Of a stretch of 64,000 nt of DNA, positions 14,528 through 50,100 are shown piece by piece (position 1 is the stretch's first letter; each line of letters starts with the position of its first letter). The notes beneath the pieces are model-generated. The model had not been told where the DNA came from and searched no databases. It was given only the letters and a program-made list of their open reading frames with translations. Origin of the DNA: Orbicella franksi (lineage: Eukaryota); contig OZ116698.1 in assembly GCA_964199315.1 (NCBI GenBank), forward strand, positions 24,924,001 through 24,988,000, in the 5' to 3' direction. A program made the translations under genes and the position numbers.

Positions 14528-16112
14528 TTAGATCCCAACCTCAATGTTTTCACTCTGGGTTTGGAGTGGTACCAGGTTTATGTGCAGCTCGCAGTGCAGT
14601 TAGTTTTTACTGTGGATTTCCGTAGAAAATGAAGTCTTTGTAAGTATGTAGTACTAGTGGGCAGTGTTGAGGTACAACCCTGGAATGTTGTAGCATAAAA
14701 TGTCTATTTAAATCTAAGTAAATATTTACACAGAGTCGCTTCATTCAAAGGAAGTTTAATTACAAAGATTTTTCCCTGGCTTTATGGATACAATGCAATT
14801 CTCAAAGGTTCTTTTATAAATTGACTCAACCTTTATTTCAAAGATAGCCAGTTTAAGTTTATAGGCGCGCCGAGAGGATTTAAATTGTATTTTATAGCAC
14901 ATTAAGTAATGTAGTTTGGTTCGCTAACTGCGATAAACTATTTGCAATTTGGTTCTAGAAAAATAAAATTTTTATCGGTATTCAATTAACAGGGGGAGGA
15001 ATATTTCTGAAGAGACTTTGTAGACTCTTTTTATAAGACTCTAAGCATAAATTTTATAAGAACGCAGTCGTTTGCATAATCAGTGACGCTTTGCGCTCAG
15101 GAGTGGTGCTTTATTTCGTTTACACATTATAAACAAGTGTTGGACATTGCATTTCTTAGCTTGCTACCCACTCATTCAGTTGTCATTCACTGACGCAAAT
15201 CGTGAATAAACGAAAATGCAAAACAAATATGTCGCCAAGTAAGTAAATGAATAAGTAAACTAGCGTCTCCTTGGATAAAAACAATGGCTTTATCCATTCT
15301 CTTTGACGTTTATAACATGCACTTAAGATTGTAATTCAAGCTTATTGCACCTTGAAAAAAATGGTTGAGAGGCTTCAGATGCTTGAGACTCGGCGTTTAT
15401 TCGGGACCCGGCTCAGAAAATTTTTCCATCTATGTGAAGTTATTATTTTTTTGACGTCCACAACAATTAGGATTAATATATGGCATACATAGCTATATAT
15501 ATTGATCGCGAAATGTAATGTTTAAAACCAACTGAATAATAAGCCCCTTGAACAACTCCCTCCCGTCGTAAATAAGCTCAGCTTCTTCAAACTCTCAGAC
15601 AAAAATCCTTCTGATAATGTTATGTTTTCCTCCGGCGAATATCACATGGGTCCATATTCTAATCTCCACAACACCGGCTGGTGCAAGGCATGTGCAGTGT
15701 TTTCTGGGGTACGGTTGGTAGCCTTACCCCCAACCCCCCATCTGGTGGTCCAGGAGATCACTCTTTGTCCCTGAGCCTCTGCCCTTTGACCTTTGAGCCA
15801 AGGGTCATCAAAGACTCTAGTCGACATAGCTTTAGGTATCATGGAAACAGTCAAGCTACGTTTCCTTTGAGGTGGGGGTAATGGGGGTTCATGTAAGGCT
15901 CGATGTCCACATTTATATTATCAGCCGGTTGATAATACCTCTAAAAAAATTCTTAATTTAATTTCTCTGGTATAAAAGTGTTTTATCTTGCTAGTTTTTT
16001 GCAGAGTTGTTTTAAATTTAATTACGCATTCAGGCACCACGCATTCAAGAATAAAATATGACCCTTTGAACAACTGGGCCCAGATCTCCAATACCGCCCG
16101 AGGCTGTGAAAA

Positions 16113-19100
16113 ATGCGGGGAACCTGGAAAAGGTGTAAGGATTTCAATATGGTGGCTTTCCCGAAGGATGCTTTCGTTCTTGTGCGACAGTTTAACATTA
16201 ACACTGCATCACTTCGGATACTGGTGTTTGGCAGCCTTAAAAGGGATTTTCCCTTTGGCTTTGTTAGAAAGTTGGTAACTGAAACTCAGAAGCCTTTGGA
16301 AACTAACCAAGGTTCACAAGGGACAAGATTAGTTGAACAACTTGAACAGCCTGAACTGTCATCTAAAGCACGTGCCAAAGTCGGGGAATTTTTGGAAAGA
16401 AATGGCATCCGAGTTAAAAATATTCGCAAACATATAGATTTCAGCAAACTTTCCGTGAAGAAAATAGCACAAATCTTTAGATTTCTAGGGGAGATTGGAA
16501 TTGACCGAGAACTTAGGCGCAAAGTTATCACTCGCAGACCAACCATCTTGACAACCAAGGAGGTCTTGCTTAAAAACCGTGTGCAGGCAATGCGAAATAT
16601 TGGAATCTATCCAGAGTCTATAACTTACGTTGTTAAAGAAGCGCCTGGTGTGTTAACAGCTAGAACAGAGGAAACTTTGCCTGGAAAGGTAAGGCCTGGT
16701 GGGAGGGGGAGGTGGGAGGTATCTTGGCCATTCATGGTTACAAACGTAGCTGGGTAGCATTCCCTGCATGCTTTCTCTGTTCCCTCTTCCCACCTCCAGA
16801 CTGCTGGCCTATATCTGTGGTCTAGGTAGCCTCCTATGCAGATGATACTCTTTGGGCTCGTCATGCAATCTTCCTCCTTTACCAGCATCTGTTGAAACAA
16901 ACAACACATTCCTTTCCCTTTGCTTGTAGAAATCAGCTGAGCCAATCAGTGCCGGGTCATCGTGTAAGGCTCCCTTGGAGTGGTAACTACAACATGTACT
17001 GTGGCGTGTTGTGTTGAATTTAGCGTTAATGCTTTCAAAGTAAATACTATGATTTCAATTATGCAATCTTTTGAATCCAGTCCGAGCTCAAAGATTGATG
17101 AACACTTCATCTTTTTCACTGTGAAACACACTATAGTTTCCGTATTCAGACTTAAACATAACATTGTAAATGTCTCACACACTCATTGAAAGTCCTTGCT
17201 GGTATTTTGGTGTCTTGCAATCCAAGCAGATTTCCTGCAGGCTTCCAGCATTTTGGGACGAACTAGCCAAACAAATGTCTACTTACAAACATGCCCATTT
17301 CTTTCTTTACAAAATGCTCTACAGTTTCTTGCTTATCAAGATTTAAATCAAGGGTTTTAAGGTCCACACACTTGTTGAAAGGCCACACTGGCAGTAAAGT
17401 GTCAGGCTAAATTTCTTAGGTTCAAACATTTGCTGCCTTGATCAGGAAGTGCATTGTGATAAAACGACAGAAATAACCCTGTGTTTCAGCAGCCATAATT
17501 TCATGGGGAAGGAAGATTATGTGACATGCTCAACGAGTGTCTGTGTAGGAGACTATGGTCCAGTCAGTATGAACCTGGCCTAATCAGCCAAAATGAAAAA
17601 TCAATCACTTGATTGTTTTGTGATTGGTTTGGGACAGTCAAAGACAATCTAACTTCATTTTATGGTGAGTTCAATTACGGAACTTAATGGAACCAATTGA
17701 AGTCAACTGGTTTTATTTTGTTTACAAAAAAAGAAAATGCAAAACATTTCAACTACACAGATTTTGCCATTGTATGAAATTTCAAGGTAGGTAAGATGTA
17801 GTAGATAATAATATAAAATTCTTCTGGCATCTTGGTTCTCACCTGGGAACTCGTATTTTCGTGTTTCAAGACCACACAACTCCAAAACCTGTTGAAAACA
17901 GTTTTAAATGCCTGGCTTGGCCAACTGAATGTTTGATAATCGGTCCCACCAATCAAACTTCAAGAGTTTGCTTGTGTTTGATGGAATAAGAGTGCAATAA
18001 CTGAACCTTTGATTGTATTTGCTTTGATAAGTTTGTGTTTGATTGCTGAACCCAATAAAAATCAATCGAACAATTTAAGTTCAACTGGATTTGACTTCTC
18101 AGAGGTAACTTTGTAAGATTTTAGTTTAGTTGGTGCATGTTGGACTATGATAGTGAAAATATTTCTGCATGGAAAACAGCTAGCCTGGGATAGGGCAGGG
18201 GTGTTTGGTGCTTAGTCAGAATATTGTTGCAAAATCAAACTGATCATGGTCTAGTATGGGGTAAGGGTTTCAATGTCTGCGGGGCAGAGGAGAGAATCTT
18301 AGACCCAATATAAGTCTTCTCTTTAGTCTGTTCTGTGCCAATTGAGAAGAGCTAGGAGTCTTGACTACCCCTCTCTCCGTGGGTAGAATACAAGTCCATT
18401 GGTGTTACCCTCAGCATTAAAGTTTCTGATCCCCATTTTATATACCTGGGTGGAGAGAGGTACATTAAGAGTAGGCTTTTAGCCAGGATTTGAAAAGTGT
18501 GCATCCAAAATGTGCTTTAGGGTCTACTCACATGAACAATTTATAAAGTATCATTTGAAAAATAAAATGCATCCTGTGGGTGTCCACAGGATGCTTGGAT
18601 GCCCATCTTTCTCAAAGCATGTCTGAGAGTTAAGTGTCTTGCCCAACAACACAAACTTCTCACAATCTAATCTGAAAGCTTTTTTTTATTTCATAGGTCA
18701 AATATTTTGAAGACATGAAAGTAACACCAAAGTTCACCAAAGATGAAATACTCCATGTACTTACAAAGTGCCCTAGCATAATCGCCACTTATAATGTTGA
18801 GTCATTGAGGAAGAAAGTTCAGTTCCTCGAACAAGAGCTCAAATTCAACAAAGATCACATCAAGAACATCATTCTCAAACAGCCATCTGTTTTGACCTTC
18901 AGTCCCGAGGCACTCAAGGAAAAGTGGACATACTGCTATGAGAAGATTAATGCGAGTCCATCCAGTATAGCACGCTGTCCTCGGTTGTTCCAGTGCTCTT
19001 TAAAGCGAATAAAAGAAAGGCATTTGTACTTGAAACATCTAGGCCACATAACAGATGAAATGAAGATCGATGACTATGGACTGGGACTGATTGTTACTAA

Positions 19101-19191
19101 CTCAGATAAACGGTTTGCTGAAAAAGTTGCAAGAATGTCACTGGATGAATTTGATGAGTTTAGAAGGGACATAGATTGGAATGAACAATAA
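16113..19191 (+). CDS. mTERF-family protein (MTERF3/MTERF4-like), ~356 aa
   Basis: Exons 16113-16688 (AAG|gtaagg) and 18697-19191 (tttcatag|GTC), phase 0. Repeated mTERF-type helical motifs (RRPTIL, EAPGVL, KCPSII, KQPSVL, RCPRLF). C-terminal IKERHLYLKHLG...SDKRFAEKVARMSLDEF resembles MTERF3/4 ends. Start could be Met 16113 or 16149. Confidence 0.88.
18350..18660 (-). mobile_element. Degenerate fragments of the tRNA-derived SINE seen at 39144-39398
   Basis: Reverse-strand blocks CCTGGGTGGAGAGAGG and AGAGTTAAGTGTCTTGCCCAA match the SINE central domain. Confidence 0.5.
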
Positions 19192-33700: not shown

Positions 33701-36692
33701 ATTTGGCAGACTGGTAGTAAATATTTTACTTTTGTTTGAGCTCATTTTTCAAAGAAATCTATGAGACCATTTTTTTGCTGTTTTTTCAGACATAAATTTT
33801 CAAAAATAAAAAAGAAGTGCCTGTACAAACCCTACCTTTTTCGTGTTTGAGATCTGTATTTTGCAGGATGCTATGTACTGTGAAAAGTTTGGAAGACTTC
33901 AGTGAAGGAAATTCAAGAAAATCACAAATAAAGCCATGAAAAAAGTAAAAAATACTCTTGTTTGGGCATTTATAATTAAAGACTAAAACCCAAAATTTTA
34001 ACAGAGATGATTAAGTAAAACACTATTTAATCATTGCTTACTACATGTAGTAAGTTTGGGAGGACTAGGTGCAAAATCGAACGCAATTAAACAGCATTCA
34101 AGACATGAGACTTGCGCACGCAACGCCATAAATGATTACCCTATGGAGCCGCCTTAAGAAGAGTTAAACTGCGTTTTGGGGAGAAGTTGGTGGTTAAGGT
34201 GATTCCTCAGAAATTAAAGTTCTCAAACATTTTTTTGAAACTTTTCCTGATTGTTCTCTACCAAGCACTGTTTCAAAAGATACAATAAAAAGGATAGGCC
34301 ACCATGCTTGCTTAAGAGATACATGTATGATGTGCCAATCTTCCCCCATTTATGCCTAATCATGCACATTGTTTAATAAGTTCACATTACATTTTGTGGT
34401 AGCTGGAAGTAAGGGTTATTAAAGCGATACTTGAAAAAATCTTGATAGGTGGAAATTCTCAGGGACTTGGGACAATGCAATATATAATTTATGGAAAAAT
34501 CACATAGATGTACGTGTAATTCTTTACGACATTGGCTCAAAGCATTCCTCGAATCATTGTTTTTGAAGATATAATTTGCATCCTCGAGGCAATAAAACTA
34601 ACGGTTTTGGGCATTCTTTTAGCTATATCTTTTTTTCCTTTCAAACTATCTTTTTCTTAATTTTTTAATCTGAGAGGATCTTTTTTACACTAAAATTATG
34701 CAATAAAAAAATAGGTCACTGTGTTCGTTTAAGAGAAAACAAGCATTTATTTCGCTGTTGAGCTTAGCTTAAGAGAAATCTCTTATGTTGTGTATGTGCA
34801 TCTGCTCATGTGCACGAGTGGGTGAGAATCAAGTGCAGAAGGAATGTGCAATGTGATACTGAGGAATCACTGTAAAGATCCTTAATTCTAATAAATTGCC
34901 TAGACTTAAATTGTTATAAATAGTAAAGAGAGTACATAAATTGATCATTGGGAGGAATTTGCAGGTAACACAGTCAGTTCTTTTTAACTAGTTCTGTTTT
35001 TTTTGGACTTTCAGAACCAACATACTTTGATGTACTTTTTGATTCTGGAGAGGAATTTGTTCTTAACCACCCGGTTTTACCAATTACTATAATCAAATTC
35101 AGATGCAATGAAAATGCTACATGGGAGGCCTCAAAAGATCACACAGAAGTTCCAAGACTTGCCCATGTGCATGTAAATTACACTATACAGGATGAATTCC
35201 TCACGGTAGGTAAAATTAATAACTTTAGAAATTTAAGATGAATCTTCTAATAATTATAAATTAATTGAAACCTGAAAAACAACAATGTGAAAAGACCAAA
35301 CTCTCTATTTCACACACAAATCCTCATGTGAAGTTGGAATTACAGTCAAACTCATAAAACTGTGAACACCTAAAATATGTCTGGAATGTTTAATATGTTA
35401 TATAACCAATCACGAATGAGATCTTCAACCACAGAAACTGCAGAAAACAGATGTATCGCATTGATCATGGAACTATAAATATAGTTTTGGTTTTCGCTTG
35501 ATCAGCTCCCAGTTGGCATGATAGCTCAGTTGGTAGAGCACTGCACTGGTATCACAGAGGTCATGGGTTCAAATCCCATTCAGGCCTGAACTTTTTTCAG
35601 GCTTTAATTTCACAACTGCTTAAGTTGTGTATATAACTGCAATGATCAATCATGTCTTCATATTCTCCGCAGTTCAAATATATAATCTTTCATATATTCA
35701 CTTGCATCCAGTACTTAGTTTGAGTGATTTTGGAAAACAAAAATCCTGCCGATGTGTACAGTTACTCAAGCGAAGCAACAGTTAATTTGACCCGGCTGTA
35801 AATAGGGATGAATAAAAATTTAAATTTTGGTTGTTTTGCTAACCTTGGTATCATCTTTGGTTAAACTAGCAACTCAATTTATTTTAGCAGATAATTACAA
35901 TTCCTTGGGCCCAGTGATTTGTTGATCTAAACACCCTGGAAAGATTGATGACGATATATGCAAATGTTTCCTAATTTTGGAATTAGTTGTGGCAAAGAGA
36001 CACCTCAATTTTCCGCGGTTGCTTCCCAAATAAATTTGCGCTTGATTCACATATTACAAAATATAATGGAAGACTTCCATTTTCATCAATTTCACTCTTT
36101 GCTTTTCGTCATTATCAAAATAAAGAAACGAAATAAGGAAAGCACCGATTTGGATCGTTCAGGCTTGAGTGATTCAACAGCCACTAGTGCAGTCGTGTCG
36201 GCCCGGCACATTGGTTTGTGAAAATAGTTTTTTCACATTATAAACATCCCAAACTCATGTACATCTGCTTTCCACAGTTTCTGTGGTTGAAGATCTCACT
36301 CGTGATTGGTTATAACACAATAAACATTCCAGACATATTTTAGGTGTTCATGGTTTTGTGAGTTTGACTGTAACCCTCTGGGTGCAGAGTAAACTATTGA
36401 AATGGTTTAACAAGCTGTTGACAACTTCTGAAAGTGCAAACACGAATTAACACCAAAATTGACCTCTCTCTCAGAAAAAGCCCGGATGATCACAATATGT
36501 GGCATTTCTGTGAAAGTCTGCACAAAAGTGAACAACAACAGAGTAAAATTTAAAGCTGTCTTGATTTACGGTTGTTAGAAGTTATTTTTCTGCCTTGAAT
36601 GAAAATACACGTGTGCGCTCATATGCAACGTTAAGATTATTTATTATATGGCTAATTCCGTGAGCGGGCAAGATGAATCAAATCCTGCGTTG

Positions 36693-43392: not shown

Positions 43393-43892
43393 ATGGCGAC
43401 CAAGGAAGTGAAGACTTCCCTGAAAAATGCACGAGAGTGCATCAAAAACAAGGATTATAAGGAAGCTCTTAAACACTGCAAGGTACATTAATTAATTGAT
43501 TAATTAATTAACTTCTCTTACCTTTGGAGCTTTAGCTTTTTTAACCCACTTTTCACGAAAATTTCCTTTGGTATAAAACAGTCTGAGAGCCTCAGAGATT
43601 CTGAGCTTTGTGAAATAAGCAGAACTTCACATTTTCTTCGTTTGCGAAGAATCTGTCTTTCAGACTTTACTTTGCATGCGCTTTTAATCAGGGCCAATTT
43701 CTAAGTCCTGACATTTTGAGGTATTGTTGTTCGGGTAGATTTTGGAAGAAAACAACTAGTGTCCAGTTTTCCCTCAAGAGAAAGGGAAAAGAAAGTGAAG
43801 AATGATCATTGCAGTTAATTTTCCAATTTAAGCAATTGGAAAGAAGAATGTGTGGCTTCATAGCTCAGTTGGTAGAGCATCGCACCGGTATT

Positions 43893-43926
<34 letters not shown>

Positions 43927-44144
43927 TGATTTTTTTCAGGCTTCTTCTTTCCAATTGCTTAAATTGGAAAATTAACTGCGATGATCATTCTTCACTTTCA
44001 TCTATAACCGCAGTTCATATATGAACTATTTCATATAAACTTCACATCATTTCACTCCTCACGGGAAGATATGAACTCAACTAATTGACCTCGCTCCCAA
44101 TGTGTGGCTTCATAGCTCAGTTGGTAGAGCATTGCACCGGTATC

Positions 44145-44178
<34 letters not shown>

Positions 44179-47100
44179 TGATTTTTTTCAGGCTTCTTCT
44201 TTCCAATTGCTTAAATTGGAAAATTAACTGCGATGATCATTCTTCACTTTCATCTATAACCGCAGTTCATATATGAACTATTTCATATAAACTTCACATC
44301 AGAAAGGGAAAAAATCTTGAAAAGAGTTTTAAAAGTTGGGCTCATTCACCCCATCTCAAGACTTTACTAAGCCACCTTAATTTCTGATATAAATCAGGAC
44401 AAATAAATATTTTTAATCTCTCATCAAGAATCATACATTGTGACCTACATGTAGTAGGCTTACTATTGTTACCATTAAAAAGCATAATGGACTTTCTTGT
44501 TTTAAGGCACATTATATATCCTCAAGTTTGATTTTCAGGACTATTCAATTATGCATGCTCCAAATTATAAGGTTTTTACATTGAGGTCTTGTCACTGCAC
44601 TTGTAGGCTGTGTTGAAGGCAGATAAAACCAATTACACTGCCTTGGTGTTCTTTGGGAAATGTGCATCAGAGTTGAACCAACCTGACCAGGCTTATATGG
44701 CTTACAAGAAAGCAATTGAATCTGACGAGACACAGCTTCTTGCTTGGCAGGTGAGGAAACTCCATAAACTACTTTTATTAGTAATATACATTATTTCACT
44801 CATTTAAAGGAGAAGGTCACTCCAAAATAAATTATAAACCTTGCACTAAGTCTAGGCACTCACCGAAGTTTCAGCCTCTAAAGTGCAGGTTTTCCTTATG
44901 AAATTTGTCTCCAAAGAAGCTCAAAATTTGACATCATTTCCACCATTTTGAACAGTACTCAGCAGCCAGGCATCGTTTTTGTGATGTCATTTCCTCCAAG
45001 AAATTTTGTTCATGGTTTCTGACAAGCCTTTTAACTACCACGCTATGTTATGGCTGATCTTGAGCCATATTATTTCAAGCCAAATGTGTTCCAAACCCTG
45101 AAAATAGTGAAATGGATAGTCAGTTGGAAAAATACATTTTGCTGACCTTGTGAGGGATGCCAAGTCAGTTGCAGATTTTTCTGCTTCCTATCAATTTTGA
45201 GTTGGATGGAGTGATCACATACATTTAACCACAGCCTGGCTGCTAAGTACAGTTTCAAAATGGTGGCGTCCAAAGTCAAATTTTGGGCTTCTTTCAAGAC
45301 GAATTTCTTCAGGATAACAGGTACTTTAGAGGCTGAAACTCTGGTGAGTGGAAAAAGCAAATGTTTACTTGCTATAGGTGGTGATAAAAAGGTAAGCTTT
45401 TTGGAGTGACCCTCTCCCATATAAGAAAAAAAGGATAAATTACACTGTAAATTCCAAGGCAGCTTTTAATGTCAACTGTGTCTAGTAACTACGCTTAATT
45501 AGTAGAGTGCAAAATAATAGTCCCACAGACTGAAGAGTAGCTGCTAGTGGATGAGTGATAAAAAATTAAAGTTGCTGCCAAAACGTTTCTTTTACCCACC
45601 ATCTTGTTTGTGGTGCATAGTGACTGCTTAAAAGATAGCTTACTGGCTATCTTGTTTAGATGAGTTACATGTAAATGCGAGCTATGTTTTAACCCTTCTA
45701 GCGGGGTAACATGACAAGCCCGGGCACCCTGCTTTCATGTAAACAGGATGTTAATGACAGTACTGGTAGACAGCATGTGTTGAAGTGAGAAAGGTGTACA
45801 CGATGCTTGTTGTTGGTTGTCACCTTTGTTTGAGGATTTTCATTAGGTTTTTCTCTTCTAAATTCCTGTTTGCCCCGCATAGAGGACCCACTTGAAAAGC
45901 AGCTAGTGCAAATGCAGCTTCCTCTTGAAATGTCGTTAGTAATTGATTTTTAAATTATTTATTTTTTACTAAGCCCATCATCAAGCACATGCTACATGTG
46001 GACAACATTCGTTGCAGTATGCTGGTACAGTTAGGTACAGGTCATGGTACTCAGTCATGGTACTCAGTCATGACTTATTAAGTCTGAATGGTACTATAGT
46101 TGCAGCCTATTTGCTTTGCTTCAATTGCCATACTTTTTCAGGGTCTTGCTGCCCTCTCTGAGAAAGAAGACAACCCTCAATTAAATGCTGAACTTCCTGA
46201 AGTTTACACCAAGTTACTGCACATGTATGAGAGGTACAATGTCCATATCTACTGCATGTTTGCTTTTTTATTTCCATGCATTTTATGTGAAAGAAGATGA
46301 GATAGGAAGTCAGTTAGTCTAGAGCTCTTTGTTTTGTCTTTCCTTTATCATTTTATTCCATTAATTAAAGTTGAGCCTTTCACCATGGCTACTTTTGTCT
46401 CGCAAATCCAAAATGTTTTTTAGCAACTTAATAGTTAACTAAAGACCATTGTGGATTTGCGAGACAAATTTGAAGAATTCTGATGACTTTTGGACCTTGA
46501 TTCTTGACACTGTTTAAGTGTGCAGTCAGAGTAATTTATTTAATTCCAGATACATGTGCAGAAAGTTGACAGAATGTATTCAAGGCACTGCTGCACTGAG
46601 CATTATTTCTTGCAACTTGTCTTGTGAATTTGTTGCCACAAAAGTTGCATGAAAAATTGCCCAGTATGATAGATCCCCATAAATAAACATGCCTCAAAAT
46701 GTTTTCTTTGCATTATGTGTTGCATGAAACTTACTTGTGGAATCAGTTTCTACTTTTTGCAGTGATTACTGCAATGAAAACAGTGTGAGACATGATCATT
46801 TCAGGGGTGTTACATTAGGCAATGCCATGAGCAACTTTTCATGCATAGGTGCAACAAAACTAAACTGATTATTGTAACTGTGCCTTCACTGTACATACAG
46901 TAGAACCCCGGTAACTCAAACTCCCCCGCTAACTCGAACTGAGTCTCAATTCCCTTGGATTTGACCCAACTTTTCAGTCATTTCTACTTGGTTAACTCGA
47001 ACTTGGATAACTTGAAAACGCCGCTAACTCATTTCCCTTGATCAAAATTTACCCCACCGATAACTTGAATTTCTGGTTCTTATGACTCGCCACGGATGCC

Positions 47101-50100
47101 CATTGAGATATCCCATTAGCTTATCTTATCGTGTGGTCAAATTCTAACACTAGGACAAAGACTGAAGCAATTTGATTTTAATTAGTGCAATGAACAGATC
47201 ACGTATTGGACAGTTATTTAGCGATCATAAGAGTCATACCGGATGCGGTGTTACAGTTGTTACAAAATGTATCAGTTTCTTGTGAAATAAGTTTAATTTG
47301 CACTGTATTGTACACCAAAGTACTGAAAATCAATAAACTAGTAATTATTAACCTGGAAAATTGAATATTTTAATTGACCCCGATAACTTGAAACCCCGCT
47401 AACTCGAACAGTTTTTCGTTTCCCTTCAGAGTTCGAGTTACTGGGGTTCTAATGTAATTCTTTTCCAAGATTCTTCCAGTCAAACAGGACTGCCCCATTC
47501 AATGCCTAAAATTTGGTCCTAATTGAATCCTCAGGATTTTGGAAGCAATAATTTTTCCACAGTTTCCAAGGAAAATCAAAGTTTTCAACCAAGACATGTT
47601 TAAATCCAAAGGTTATTTTTCCCTTCAATAAGAAATGTAAATTCAGGGAATGAATTAATGTGGAACTTTCAAAAGATTCCAGGAGGGAGTTGAACCCATG
47701 ACCTTCTCTACGCTGGTCAAATGATGTATTTGAGCAACAACATGATATTTAACCCTCTGTGTTTACAGTGACAAGGTTAAATGGATGGAAGTTGCCACCA
47801 AACTTGCTGAATTTCATGACAATCAAGGTGAATTCATAACGGTACGTCATTTAAAATATAAACATTACACCCCTGTATATATGATCTGAAAGTTATACAT
47901 TCAATTTTGTGCTTTCAGCTGTGACTCTCAACATTTATTGTAAATCCATTTTCAAAGGCTATTGGAACTGAGCCATGAATGAGTGCATAATGCGAAACAT
48001 GGGTCACTCATCTTAGCTAATCATGAGCTGTGCTTCATTGTTCTTAAAAACACAACTAAGACATGTATTACAATGAGCAAGTTTTTTTTCGGTGTTCGCT
48101 CTAAGCATCTCCTTTTGATTCTTACAGTGCACCTACTCCAAACATGGCCACCCAAGAAAATTCTGTTAAGATTCAACTATAGCATTTGCATGTTAAATCA
48201 ATAGAAATGGTTAAAATTAATGTTTTTTTTTCTGATGGTGCACAGCCAGGGCATCTTAAGATCGATAACTATTTTTCAGGTAACTGTAGCAGTTGGTAAT
48301 GTCTACAGTTTTCACTCTTTAAATTTACCCAGAATTTTATTGGTGGGCTTCATTGATGTGGGTATTGCTGCAGATAATTTGATTTCTGTTTGTTACTTAC
48401 ACAAGTGAACAAGATAATTGAACCCATCCATGTTAGTAGTATCTGTGGAAGTTTTGTGTAGCCCAAGCTCAGACTGGATGCATCAATTGTAATAACAACA
48501 TACCTGTTGTTAACTTAGGCAGCAGAAATTTGGGAGGAGATTGCAATTGCCACTGAGAACACTGCAGAACAATTGAAAATCTGGACAGGAATTGTTGGGA
48601 TTCTTGAAAAGGTTGGTTGATTTGTTCAGCATTATTAAAGTACAACAGATGTCATTGGGTATGGGTTTGACATCGTGTTATATTCCAGCCATTTATTTAA
48701 TTTCTTTGTGGTCACTAATGGTATTAACCATGAATGTTTCTTCCAGAGACCATTGGAAGAGAGTGGAATTAAGAAAGTAAGTCTAAGAAATATTAATAAT
48801 ACACTGTAGTTTTAAGTGTTTCAATGGCAATAGCAACTTCAAGACCACGACACACCTTTGTTTCAGACAGGTGATGCATCAGAGCTAGACCAGTCTACTT
48901 GGTTATCCATAACTTTTTTCCTGGCCTTCATTGCTTCACAAAGTTACCTTGTAGATGTATAATATTCCTGTGATTACATTGTGTAGTTCAAGAAAATATC
49001 CGTACCTAGCCCACAGAAGGGATTTTTTTCTAAGACCCCCCACCACTCTGGAAATTTCAATCCCTTCTGTGGGGGGAGTATGGATATTAATATTCTCTGG
49101 AAGAGGAGGGATATTGATTTTTTTTCTGGAACTGCACTTTGTAGAGCAAATTTTAAAATTAGTATACATATCCTTGTTGTAATCTCAAAATGATGACTCT
49201 CTTCTTTTCAGTATTTTGCCTGAAAGCACAGCTAAACAAGCTTGTTGTTGCTAAACACGCTAATCCAGCTTCATTTCTGTGATCTCTTTTAGTTACAGGC
49301 AGCATATGAGAAAGTTGTTCATGGTAACCAGTCTCAAGAGCCAAACAAACAGCTTGAGATACACTTTGAAAATTACCTCAGATTTTTAGTGAAACACCAG
49401 GTAAATTACAGCATTTATAGACATGTTCACTTAAAACATCTCACTAAGTAAGGAATCGTTTTCCTCTCTATAGGAGAAGACATAAAGTAAGCTCTTTGGG
49501 TATTGAGTTTAAACTTACTTAGAAATGGGATTGTTAGTTGTTTTTGTTATAGTGGATCTTTTGTTAAATGTATGTAGTATATGCCTAATTGAAGAAATTT
49601 GTCATGAAAAAGGTCTAAACCATAAACAATATGACACAGTGGTTTTCTGGGAAACTTACAATCTAAAACTAATTTGCATTCTTACAGATTGTGTATTTGC
49701 ATTAAAACCAAGAGATGATGATTATCTCTGGATTAAAACGGATCTCGTGTTCACCAGCTATACTGTTGCAAACTTGAGTTTATCTGAAAGCTCTTAATGT
49801 TCAAATTTTCCTTTGTTTTCCACTAACTTAGCTACCTTTTGGGATGGTATGGACAGTTTTTATTGTTTTTTTTTAAACTACCACTTTGGGTAGCTGACCT
49901 GTGATCATAAAATGCTACGAGGAAACAATTTTCAATATTCATGATAATGTGCATGCTTTTTCAGTCTTCCCATAATTCTGTAAAGTCGTATAGTTTATGG
50001 TTAACTTTATACTTTTGCTCAGACAATGTCTTTTTGCAATCAGGTGTTTACTAAGGTGTATGTAAACTCAATGTTTGTACTTTTTACTCCACTGATAGTT

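Follow-up and report, generated by a model that had tools for sequence, protein, structure and literature searches.

A high-copy, non-coding tandem repeat derived from tRNA-Thr is very probably mobilised in trans by the reverse transcriptase (RT)/GIY-YIG protein of Penelope-like elements (PLEs). One copy lies in the first intron of SKIC3, within the 64-kb window, the whole stretch of DNA that was analysed. We hold with high confidence that this copy results from a genuine and young insertion, apparently polymorphic, and that the inserted element is non-autonomous, derived from a tRNA and likely moved by a PLE. The attribution to a PLE-type enzyme, already proposed in an earlier sequence-only reading of this DNA, draws its strength from the two fixed outer ends of the family, which are paired, one short and one long, in every two-armed copy that could be classified.

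The insertion in the first intron of SKIC3

The insertion is framed by perfect copies of a 12-bp target site duplication (TSD), AGAAAGGGAAAA, which has exactly two exact occurrences within the 64-kb window, at 43779-43790 and 44301-44312. The 510 bp between them are made up of an inverted arm, a complete unit and a partial second unit, as the sequence-only reading had described. The inverted arm (43791-43848, minus strand) runs from q151 to q94 of the unit, its outer end being the short (S, ~q152) fixed site; it is 58 nt long, one more than the 57 nt earlier claimed, and 98% complementary to the unit, with its last 2 nt fitting q251-252 too. Unit 1 (43849-44100, plus strand) has 252 nt and is followed by q1-200 of unit 2 (44101-44300, plus strand), which ends at the long (L, ~q201) fixed site, so that the count of 1.8 units stands; the first base of the right TSD copy fits q201 too. 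Each unit opens with a 73-nt cloverleaf with anticodon GGT, on which ARAGORN and Rfam agree with the sequence-only reading: 43854-43926 in unit 1 (67.8 bits in Rfam) and 44106-44178 in unit 2 (59.1 bits), both on the plus strand and both called tRNA-Thr(GGT)-like.

Within unit 1, on the plus strand, the A box (43861-43872) and B box (43905-43915) were read directly from the letters. Downstream follow a T7 run resembling a Pol III terminator (43930-43936), inside a hairpin that, by prediction, wins over the acceptor stem in read-through RNA, a spacer hairpin (43948-43970) with three compensatory changes between family 1 and its sister family 2, and conserved stem-loops (43975-44049) that hold the two putative RT start sites, q152 at 44000 and q201 at 44049. 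Only three differences separate the focal copies; all are CpG transitions, and they likely arose after insertion. A search for a source locus carrying the focal haplotype matched only the two focal units.

Placement in intron 1 of SKIC3, also proposed in the sequence-only reading, rests on exon 2 (44607-44750, plus strand), which matches PDB chains named Superkiller complex protein 3/TTC37 with an E-value of 2.8e-12, one designed TPR protein ranking above them; the identity of coding exon 1 (43393-43482, plus strand, 30 aa) follows from that of exon 2. Further features lie in the next introns of the gene: a MITE-like element (46898-47455) whose ends are inverted and whose interior has repeats of 16-18 nt, and a separate 79-nt hairpin (46392-46470). 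Elsewhere in the window, open frames at 16110-16757 and 18697-19191 appear to resemble an mTERF-type repeat protein.

The repeat family and its two fixed ends

A search of the assembly with the unit gave 1,309 candidate places, of which the best 40 were scored, and a pattern of the tRNA core had 1,524 exact matches, counting two sister families together, against none for the reversed control. The family is dispersed through the genome. We annotated 82 copies of family 1, comprising the 40 best matches and 42 copies taken in order of position along one contig (C1) from the first 100 matches listed, an intact tRNA core being required of the latter. Two duplicates (L197, L198) and one locus with no family-1 match (L200) were left out of the counts, and L007 and L183, where the TSD calls were false or microsatellite, were left out of the TSD lengths.

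Two arms, with the 3' ends of the tRNA sense pointing outward, are present in 61 of the 82 copies. The other 21 are one-armed by BLAST, yet several of these, L018, L039 and L044 among them, have some complementary-end bases just before the TSD. Outer ends fall into two clusters, q146-160 (mode 152) and q194-208 (mode 201), and the 49 nt between the modes form a tail. Every classifiable two-armed copy (57/57, p 7e-18 if the ends were independent; four of the 61 had an unclassifiable end) combines one short and one long end, in the best-match set (26/26) as in the position-ordered set (31/31). The long end lies on the left in 30 copies and the short end in 27. Among the 58 cases with a TSD its length has a mode of 13 bp, with 12-14 bp in 43, and the TSDs are 70% AT. 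No A-rich or simple-repeat tail was seen at the fixed ends in the flanks of the annotated copies, and multimers are the rule; both points favour the sequence-only reading.

In contrast to the fixed outer ends, arm length and the inner joint differ from copy to copy, and the longest single arms reach about 17 units. In 15 of 61 copies, where 5.1 would be expected, the two arms have inner ends no more than 10 nt apart in unit coordinates; inner ends show no enrichment at the 5' end of the tRNA (4/75 in the position-ordered set).

Family 2, the older sister, is represented in the window by a copy at 35514-35696 (plus strand) that is 77% identical over q5-189. It has 2,906 candidate places in the assembly, is about 10% diverged and, in the list of matches, displays two end zones as in family 1; TSDs were found in five of 30 loci, two of the five being duplicates. 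When a third family was sought by pattern, 49 matches came back, almost all of them variants of families 1 and 2. Two loci stand apart in their layout: in L179 (1150-2427) the tRNA cores are spaced by about 310 nt instead of 252, and in L201 (2645-4793) a DNA transposon-like insertion of about 2.1 kb with inverted ends splits a repeat copy.

A probable link to Penelope-like elements

The paired short and long ends correspond to the two internal RT start sites reported for a Poseidon PLE. The protein of that element, predicted to be a dimer, is reported to cut both strands of the target and to extend them with starts at two internal positions; the spacing of these equals the genomic tail unique to PLEs (PMC11167929). 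An inverted arm with the tail on one side has likewise been described for PLEs (PMC8557442). The tails given in these two sources measure 30-40 nt, and that of the repeat, at 49 nt, is longer. The strictness of the pairing suggests that one complex uses both sites asymmetrically.

Resident PLEs provide a comparison within the same genome. A search for the GIY-YIG domain returned 1,018 candidates, of which 150 were scored; RT and GIY-YIG occur together in three of six frames scanned. Eight of ten inverted PLE copies examined have an 11-13-bp TSD and unequal ends, and two have no TSD. One PLE family combines short and long ends, a tail of about 88 nt and an 11-13-bp TSD in all four of its inverted copies with a TSD; another has 11-13-bp TSDs in 4/4. 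Tails of PLEs in this assembly range from about 20 to 88 nt.

BLAST and nhmmer comparisons of the unit and of start-site profiles with 90 GIY-YIG loci (434 kb), a subset of the 150 scored among the 1,018 candidates and so a part of the PLE complement, returned repeat copies and matches to the tRNA part only, and no partner PLE. Three loci considered as chimeric repeat/PLE insertions were set aside: L103 and L237 are nested independent insertions, and L258 is a neighbouring copy. In L103 (2901-4656) and L237 (2434-3482) PLE fragments and tRNA repeats are nested mutually, in both directions. The assembly also contains a very young PLE family that bears a hammerhead, every one of its 40 scored places having 100% identity across 143 nt (L037 1247-1465; L267-L286). 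It often lies beside TA runs, its tail is about 66 nt, and its TSDs are 15-18 bp in the three non-microsatellite loci with a TSD among 20 examined. In L037 a short palindromic copy of this family is nested inside a tRNA repeat.

The tRNA-like part and the folds of the unit

Several features set the tRNA-like part apart from a decoding tRNA. It carries C33 instead of U33, the family majority has an A31-C39 mismatch, and the anticodon begins with G34; eukaryotes avoid G34 in tRNA-Thr, A34 being usual. With U33, a paired 31-39 and A34 all absent, a functional decoding tRNA-Thr is unlikely. A T7 run starts 4 nt past the tRNA-like part in the focal unit, and of the 250 units counted, 215 have a T6-T8 run after the tRNA, so Pol III alone would normally stop upstream of the RT start sites. 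The notion of an intact Pol III gene is thus half of the picture: the A and B boxes are there, and the terminator-like run directly after the tRNA speaks against simple production of the template by Pol III.

Families 1 and 2 are identical at 65 of 73 positions of the tRNA part and 80 of 122 positions of the spacer, the tRNA part being the better conserved. Five fixed double changes between them preserve the acceptor stem, the anticodon stem and the spacer hairpin, and among 34 pairs no fixed pair-breaking change was found, a comparison that covers one branch only. For either family, prediction pairs the trailer with the 3' strand of the acceptor stem, which would undo the cloverleaf in a longer RNA; a terminated RNA would then be tRNA-shaped and a read-through RNA protected. 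The hammerhead core CTGANGA is absent from both strands of a dimer of the unit, in keeping with the failure of the sequence-only reading to find such a motif. Rfam scans returned no ribozyme family either, a negative that is weak because Rfam missed the hammerhead-like core nested in L037 as well. The anticodon loop contains a self-complementary hexamer (43884-43889 and 44136-44141) kept in both families, a candidate site for RNA-RNA kissing that is possible and frankly speculative.

Template and rival explanations

The two arms of an insertion share variants far beyond chance. In 58 two-armed loci they have 137 of 340 testable non-CpG variants in common, against a mean of 4.4% and a maximum of 9.2% in shuffled pairs, and rare variants common to both arms number 55 against 1.05. 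Both cDNAs would thus stem from a single source, be it one RNA molecule or a set of sibling transcripts. The sequence-only reading held that the inverted head must derive from a preceding third unit, an argument that presupposes twin priming of the L1 kind, begun at random somewhere upstream; since the head starts at the fixed q152, which is present in every unit, such a unit is unnecessary. Single arms of up to about 17 units still require a multi-unit or repeatedly copied template.

That PLE machinery copies a 252-nt circular monomer by rolling circle, or a pool of monomers with jumps of the RT, with host tRNA enzymes doing the cutting and joining instead of a hammerhead, is a possibility that we entertain only tentatively. 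Divergence is 0.97% within insertions and 3.5% between them, and the 24 loci with at least five copies have 19 distinct all-unit haplotypes; both suggest that single units have been amplified repeatedly, which circles, template jumps and DNA exchange would explain alike. A circle also suits the want of a fixed RNA 5' end among the inner ends, the z-score of -5.9 for the circularly folded unit and a unit size matching that of coral hammerhead retrozyme circles (PMC7229834). Loci with only all-unit or singleton variants (40/64) fit it too, though they fit a multimer equally. Against it, seven of the 64 informative loci have unit-specific variants present in both arms, which excludes a single monomer circle for those loci and points to a heterogeneous multimer as the template. 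The long arrays L046, L051 and L054 are mosaic and not strictly periodic, a strictly private all-unit variant occurs in only four of 85 loci, and no cleavage motif was found in the unit. A period-3 pattern in L052 was considered as proof of a trimer circle and discarded, the terminal unit being without the deletions of its in-phase mates.

Explanations that dispense with PLEs fare worse. A tRNA head with A and B boxes and a high copy number would be expected of an ordinary SINE of tRNA origin that a LINE had moved, the inversion being due to L1-type twin priming and the tandem expansion coming later at the DNA level; the TSD lengths of the repeat lie in the L1 range and so fit as well. Yet this reading is highly improbable: the fixed ends bear neither an A-rich nor a simple-repeat tail, 5' ends do not pile up where the tRNA begins, the second priming event begins at a fixed and not a random site, and a terminator comes directly after the tRNA. 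A DNA-level element, whether a MITE, a Helentron-associated element or a dispersed satellite, that had inverted repeats near its termini and had grown in tandem inside, would agree with the inverted ends and the tandem arrays, and the period-3 duplication inside L052 does attest some DNA-level turnover. MITEs have fixed terminal inverted repeats and short TSDs, and Helitron-type elements have no TSD, whereas here arm lengths and the inner joint vary per copy, the long end lies left or right about equally and TSDs of about 13 bp recur; we regard a DNA-level origin as extremely improbable.

A model for the insertion

Mobilisation by a PLE enzyme would proceed as follows. The endonuclease would make a staggered cut of about 13 nt in AT-rich DNA, and an asymmetric RT dimer would extend one target 3' end from each of its two active sites, one cDNA starting at q152 and the other at q201 on tRNA-sense RNA of a single source. 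The two cDNAs would stop at variable points and then join, often through the unit's own hairpins; joining of same-polarity cDNAs in this manner would explain the excess of coinciding inner ends. Read-through RNA spanning several units is the likely template, its acceptor stem predicted to be hidden by the trailer hairpin, and the tRNA part probably serves as a Pol III promoter or a folding module.

A more elaborate and unlikely version makes the repeat a retrozyme free of ribozymes, the tRNA fold standing in for the hammerhead. Host tRNA-processing enzymes would cut multimers once per unit, the monomers would be ligated into 252-nt circles, the trailer hairpin would switch between a processed and a protected fold, and the asymmetric PLE RT dimer would copy the circles from two fixed sites; through the hexamer of the anticodon loop, two RNAs could be brought together for the dimer.

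Relation to known elements

The repeat recalls the animal non-LTR retrozymes (PMC7229834; 10.64898/2026.07.22.740005), for which dependence on PLEs has been proposed: both are non-coding, have tandem units of about 250 nt and long TSDs, and occur in corals. The repeat has the retrozyme layout of tandem units of 150-450 bp, low GC and TSDs above 4 bp. Unlike the non-LTR retrozymes as there described, it has a tRNA cloverleaf, A and B boxes and a terminator instead of a type I hammerhead, and no similarity was found to any PLE pLTR among the 90 loci examined, which sample part of the PLE complement. With the EN+ PLE Poseidon PAc (PMC11167929, PMC8557442) it shares partial tandems, an inverted 5'-truncated arm, AT-rich targets, two internal start sites and a tail on one side; it differs from the published accounts of that element in having no ORF and no hammerhead, in its 49-nt tail and in its tRNA derivation. 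The nearest precedent is found in the schistosome repeats that combine a Pol III promoter with a hammerhead, Sm-alpha and Sj-alpha (PMC6765202), which are tandem and retropose as multimers; the repeat described here has no hammerhead, and the PLE-type two-end geometry does not figure in the parts of that account available to us.

Chlamys elements such as MRC1 (PMC8557442) are also non-autonomous passengers of PLEs with head-to-tail multimers, but they resemble their autonomous partners at the 3' end, and no tRNA head figures in their description as available to us. The Helenus TRIMs (PMC10886601) similarly carry a tRNA-like sequence, often tRNA-Thr, in a non-autonomous retroelement that inflates tRNA counts; according to that source, however, they have LTRs, a PBS, a PPT and 4-5-bp TSDs and depend on LTR elements, and the repeat, with its TSD mode of 13 and inverted variable arms, falls outside the Helenus/TRIM definition. 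It possesses the tRNA head of SINE2 elements, and lacks both a monomer starting at the tRNA 5' end and an A-rich or simple-repeat tail. The literature searched yielded no published description of the family, which Repbase or Dfam may hold under another label.

If its mobilisation by PLEs is correct, the family would be the equivalent of a SINE for PLEs, built on a tRNA and not on a hammerhead. The strict pairing of ends and the shared source of the arms would provide an in-genome readout of the two start sites of the PLE enzyme, whose use the papers on PLEs, as far as consulted, leave open, and the 252-nt non-coding unit would offer a minimal substrate for testing it. In practical terms, copies of the family swell the number of tRNA-Thr genes counted when coral genomes are annotated.

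Empty site, other samples and RNA reads

A 662-nt contig of run X15, which comes from another sample, joins 43788 to 44309 and retains one copy of the TSD, which is the single-copy empty site that the sequence-only reading had called for. The contig is the only one of its kind in that run, has a depth of 12.3 and represents a diverged haplotype; its A-run is 2 nt longer than expected (a skip of 520, not 522), and the joint is not a GT-AG splice. No empty-site joint was present among the joints listed for four DNA runs. At the filled site the left junction is bridged only in X4 (with a bar of 31 letters), the other junction records reaching 26-30 letters in, and a contig of X9 ends at the TSD. 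Loose contig ends in four other samples cluster at 44000-44001 and 44252-44253, that is, at q152-153. Contig depth over the element is thousands-fold above the flank and is not equivalent to copy number. The runs matching the stretch include samples labelled coral metagenome; similar repeats presumably occur in other stony corals, in agreement with contigs from three other organisms.

Poly-A reads over the element are sparse, come from both strands and in 63-91% of cases continue into unrelated flanks. They have no discrete start or end and revealed no RNA intermediate, and are mostly passengers of other transcripts. Over 43791-44300, changes in three poly-A RNA runs (X21, X23, X24) are most often of the A>G class, at 23-32 places, against 10-17 for T>C, and multiply changed loose ends occur over the same interval. 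RNA editing has been reported in coral (PMC5850803), and ADAR acting on the inverted arms could account for the A>G excess, seen in RNA without matched DNA. Insertions of the family place inverted repeats in introns, and these have the appearance of A-to-I editing.
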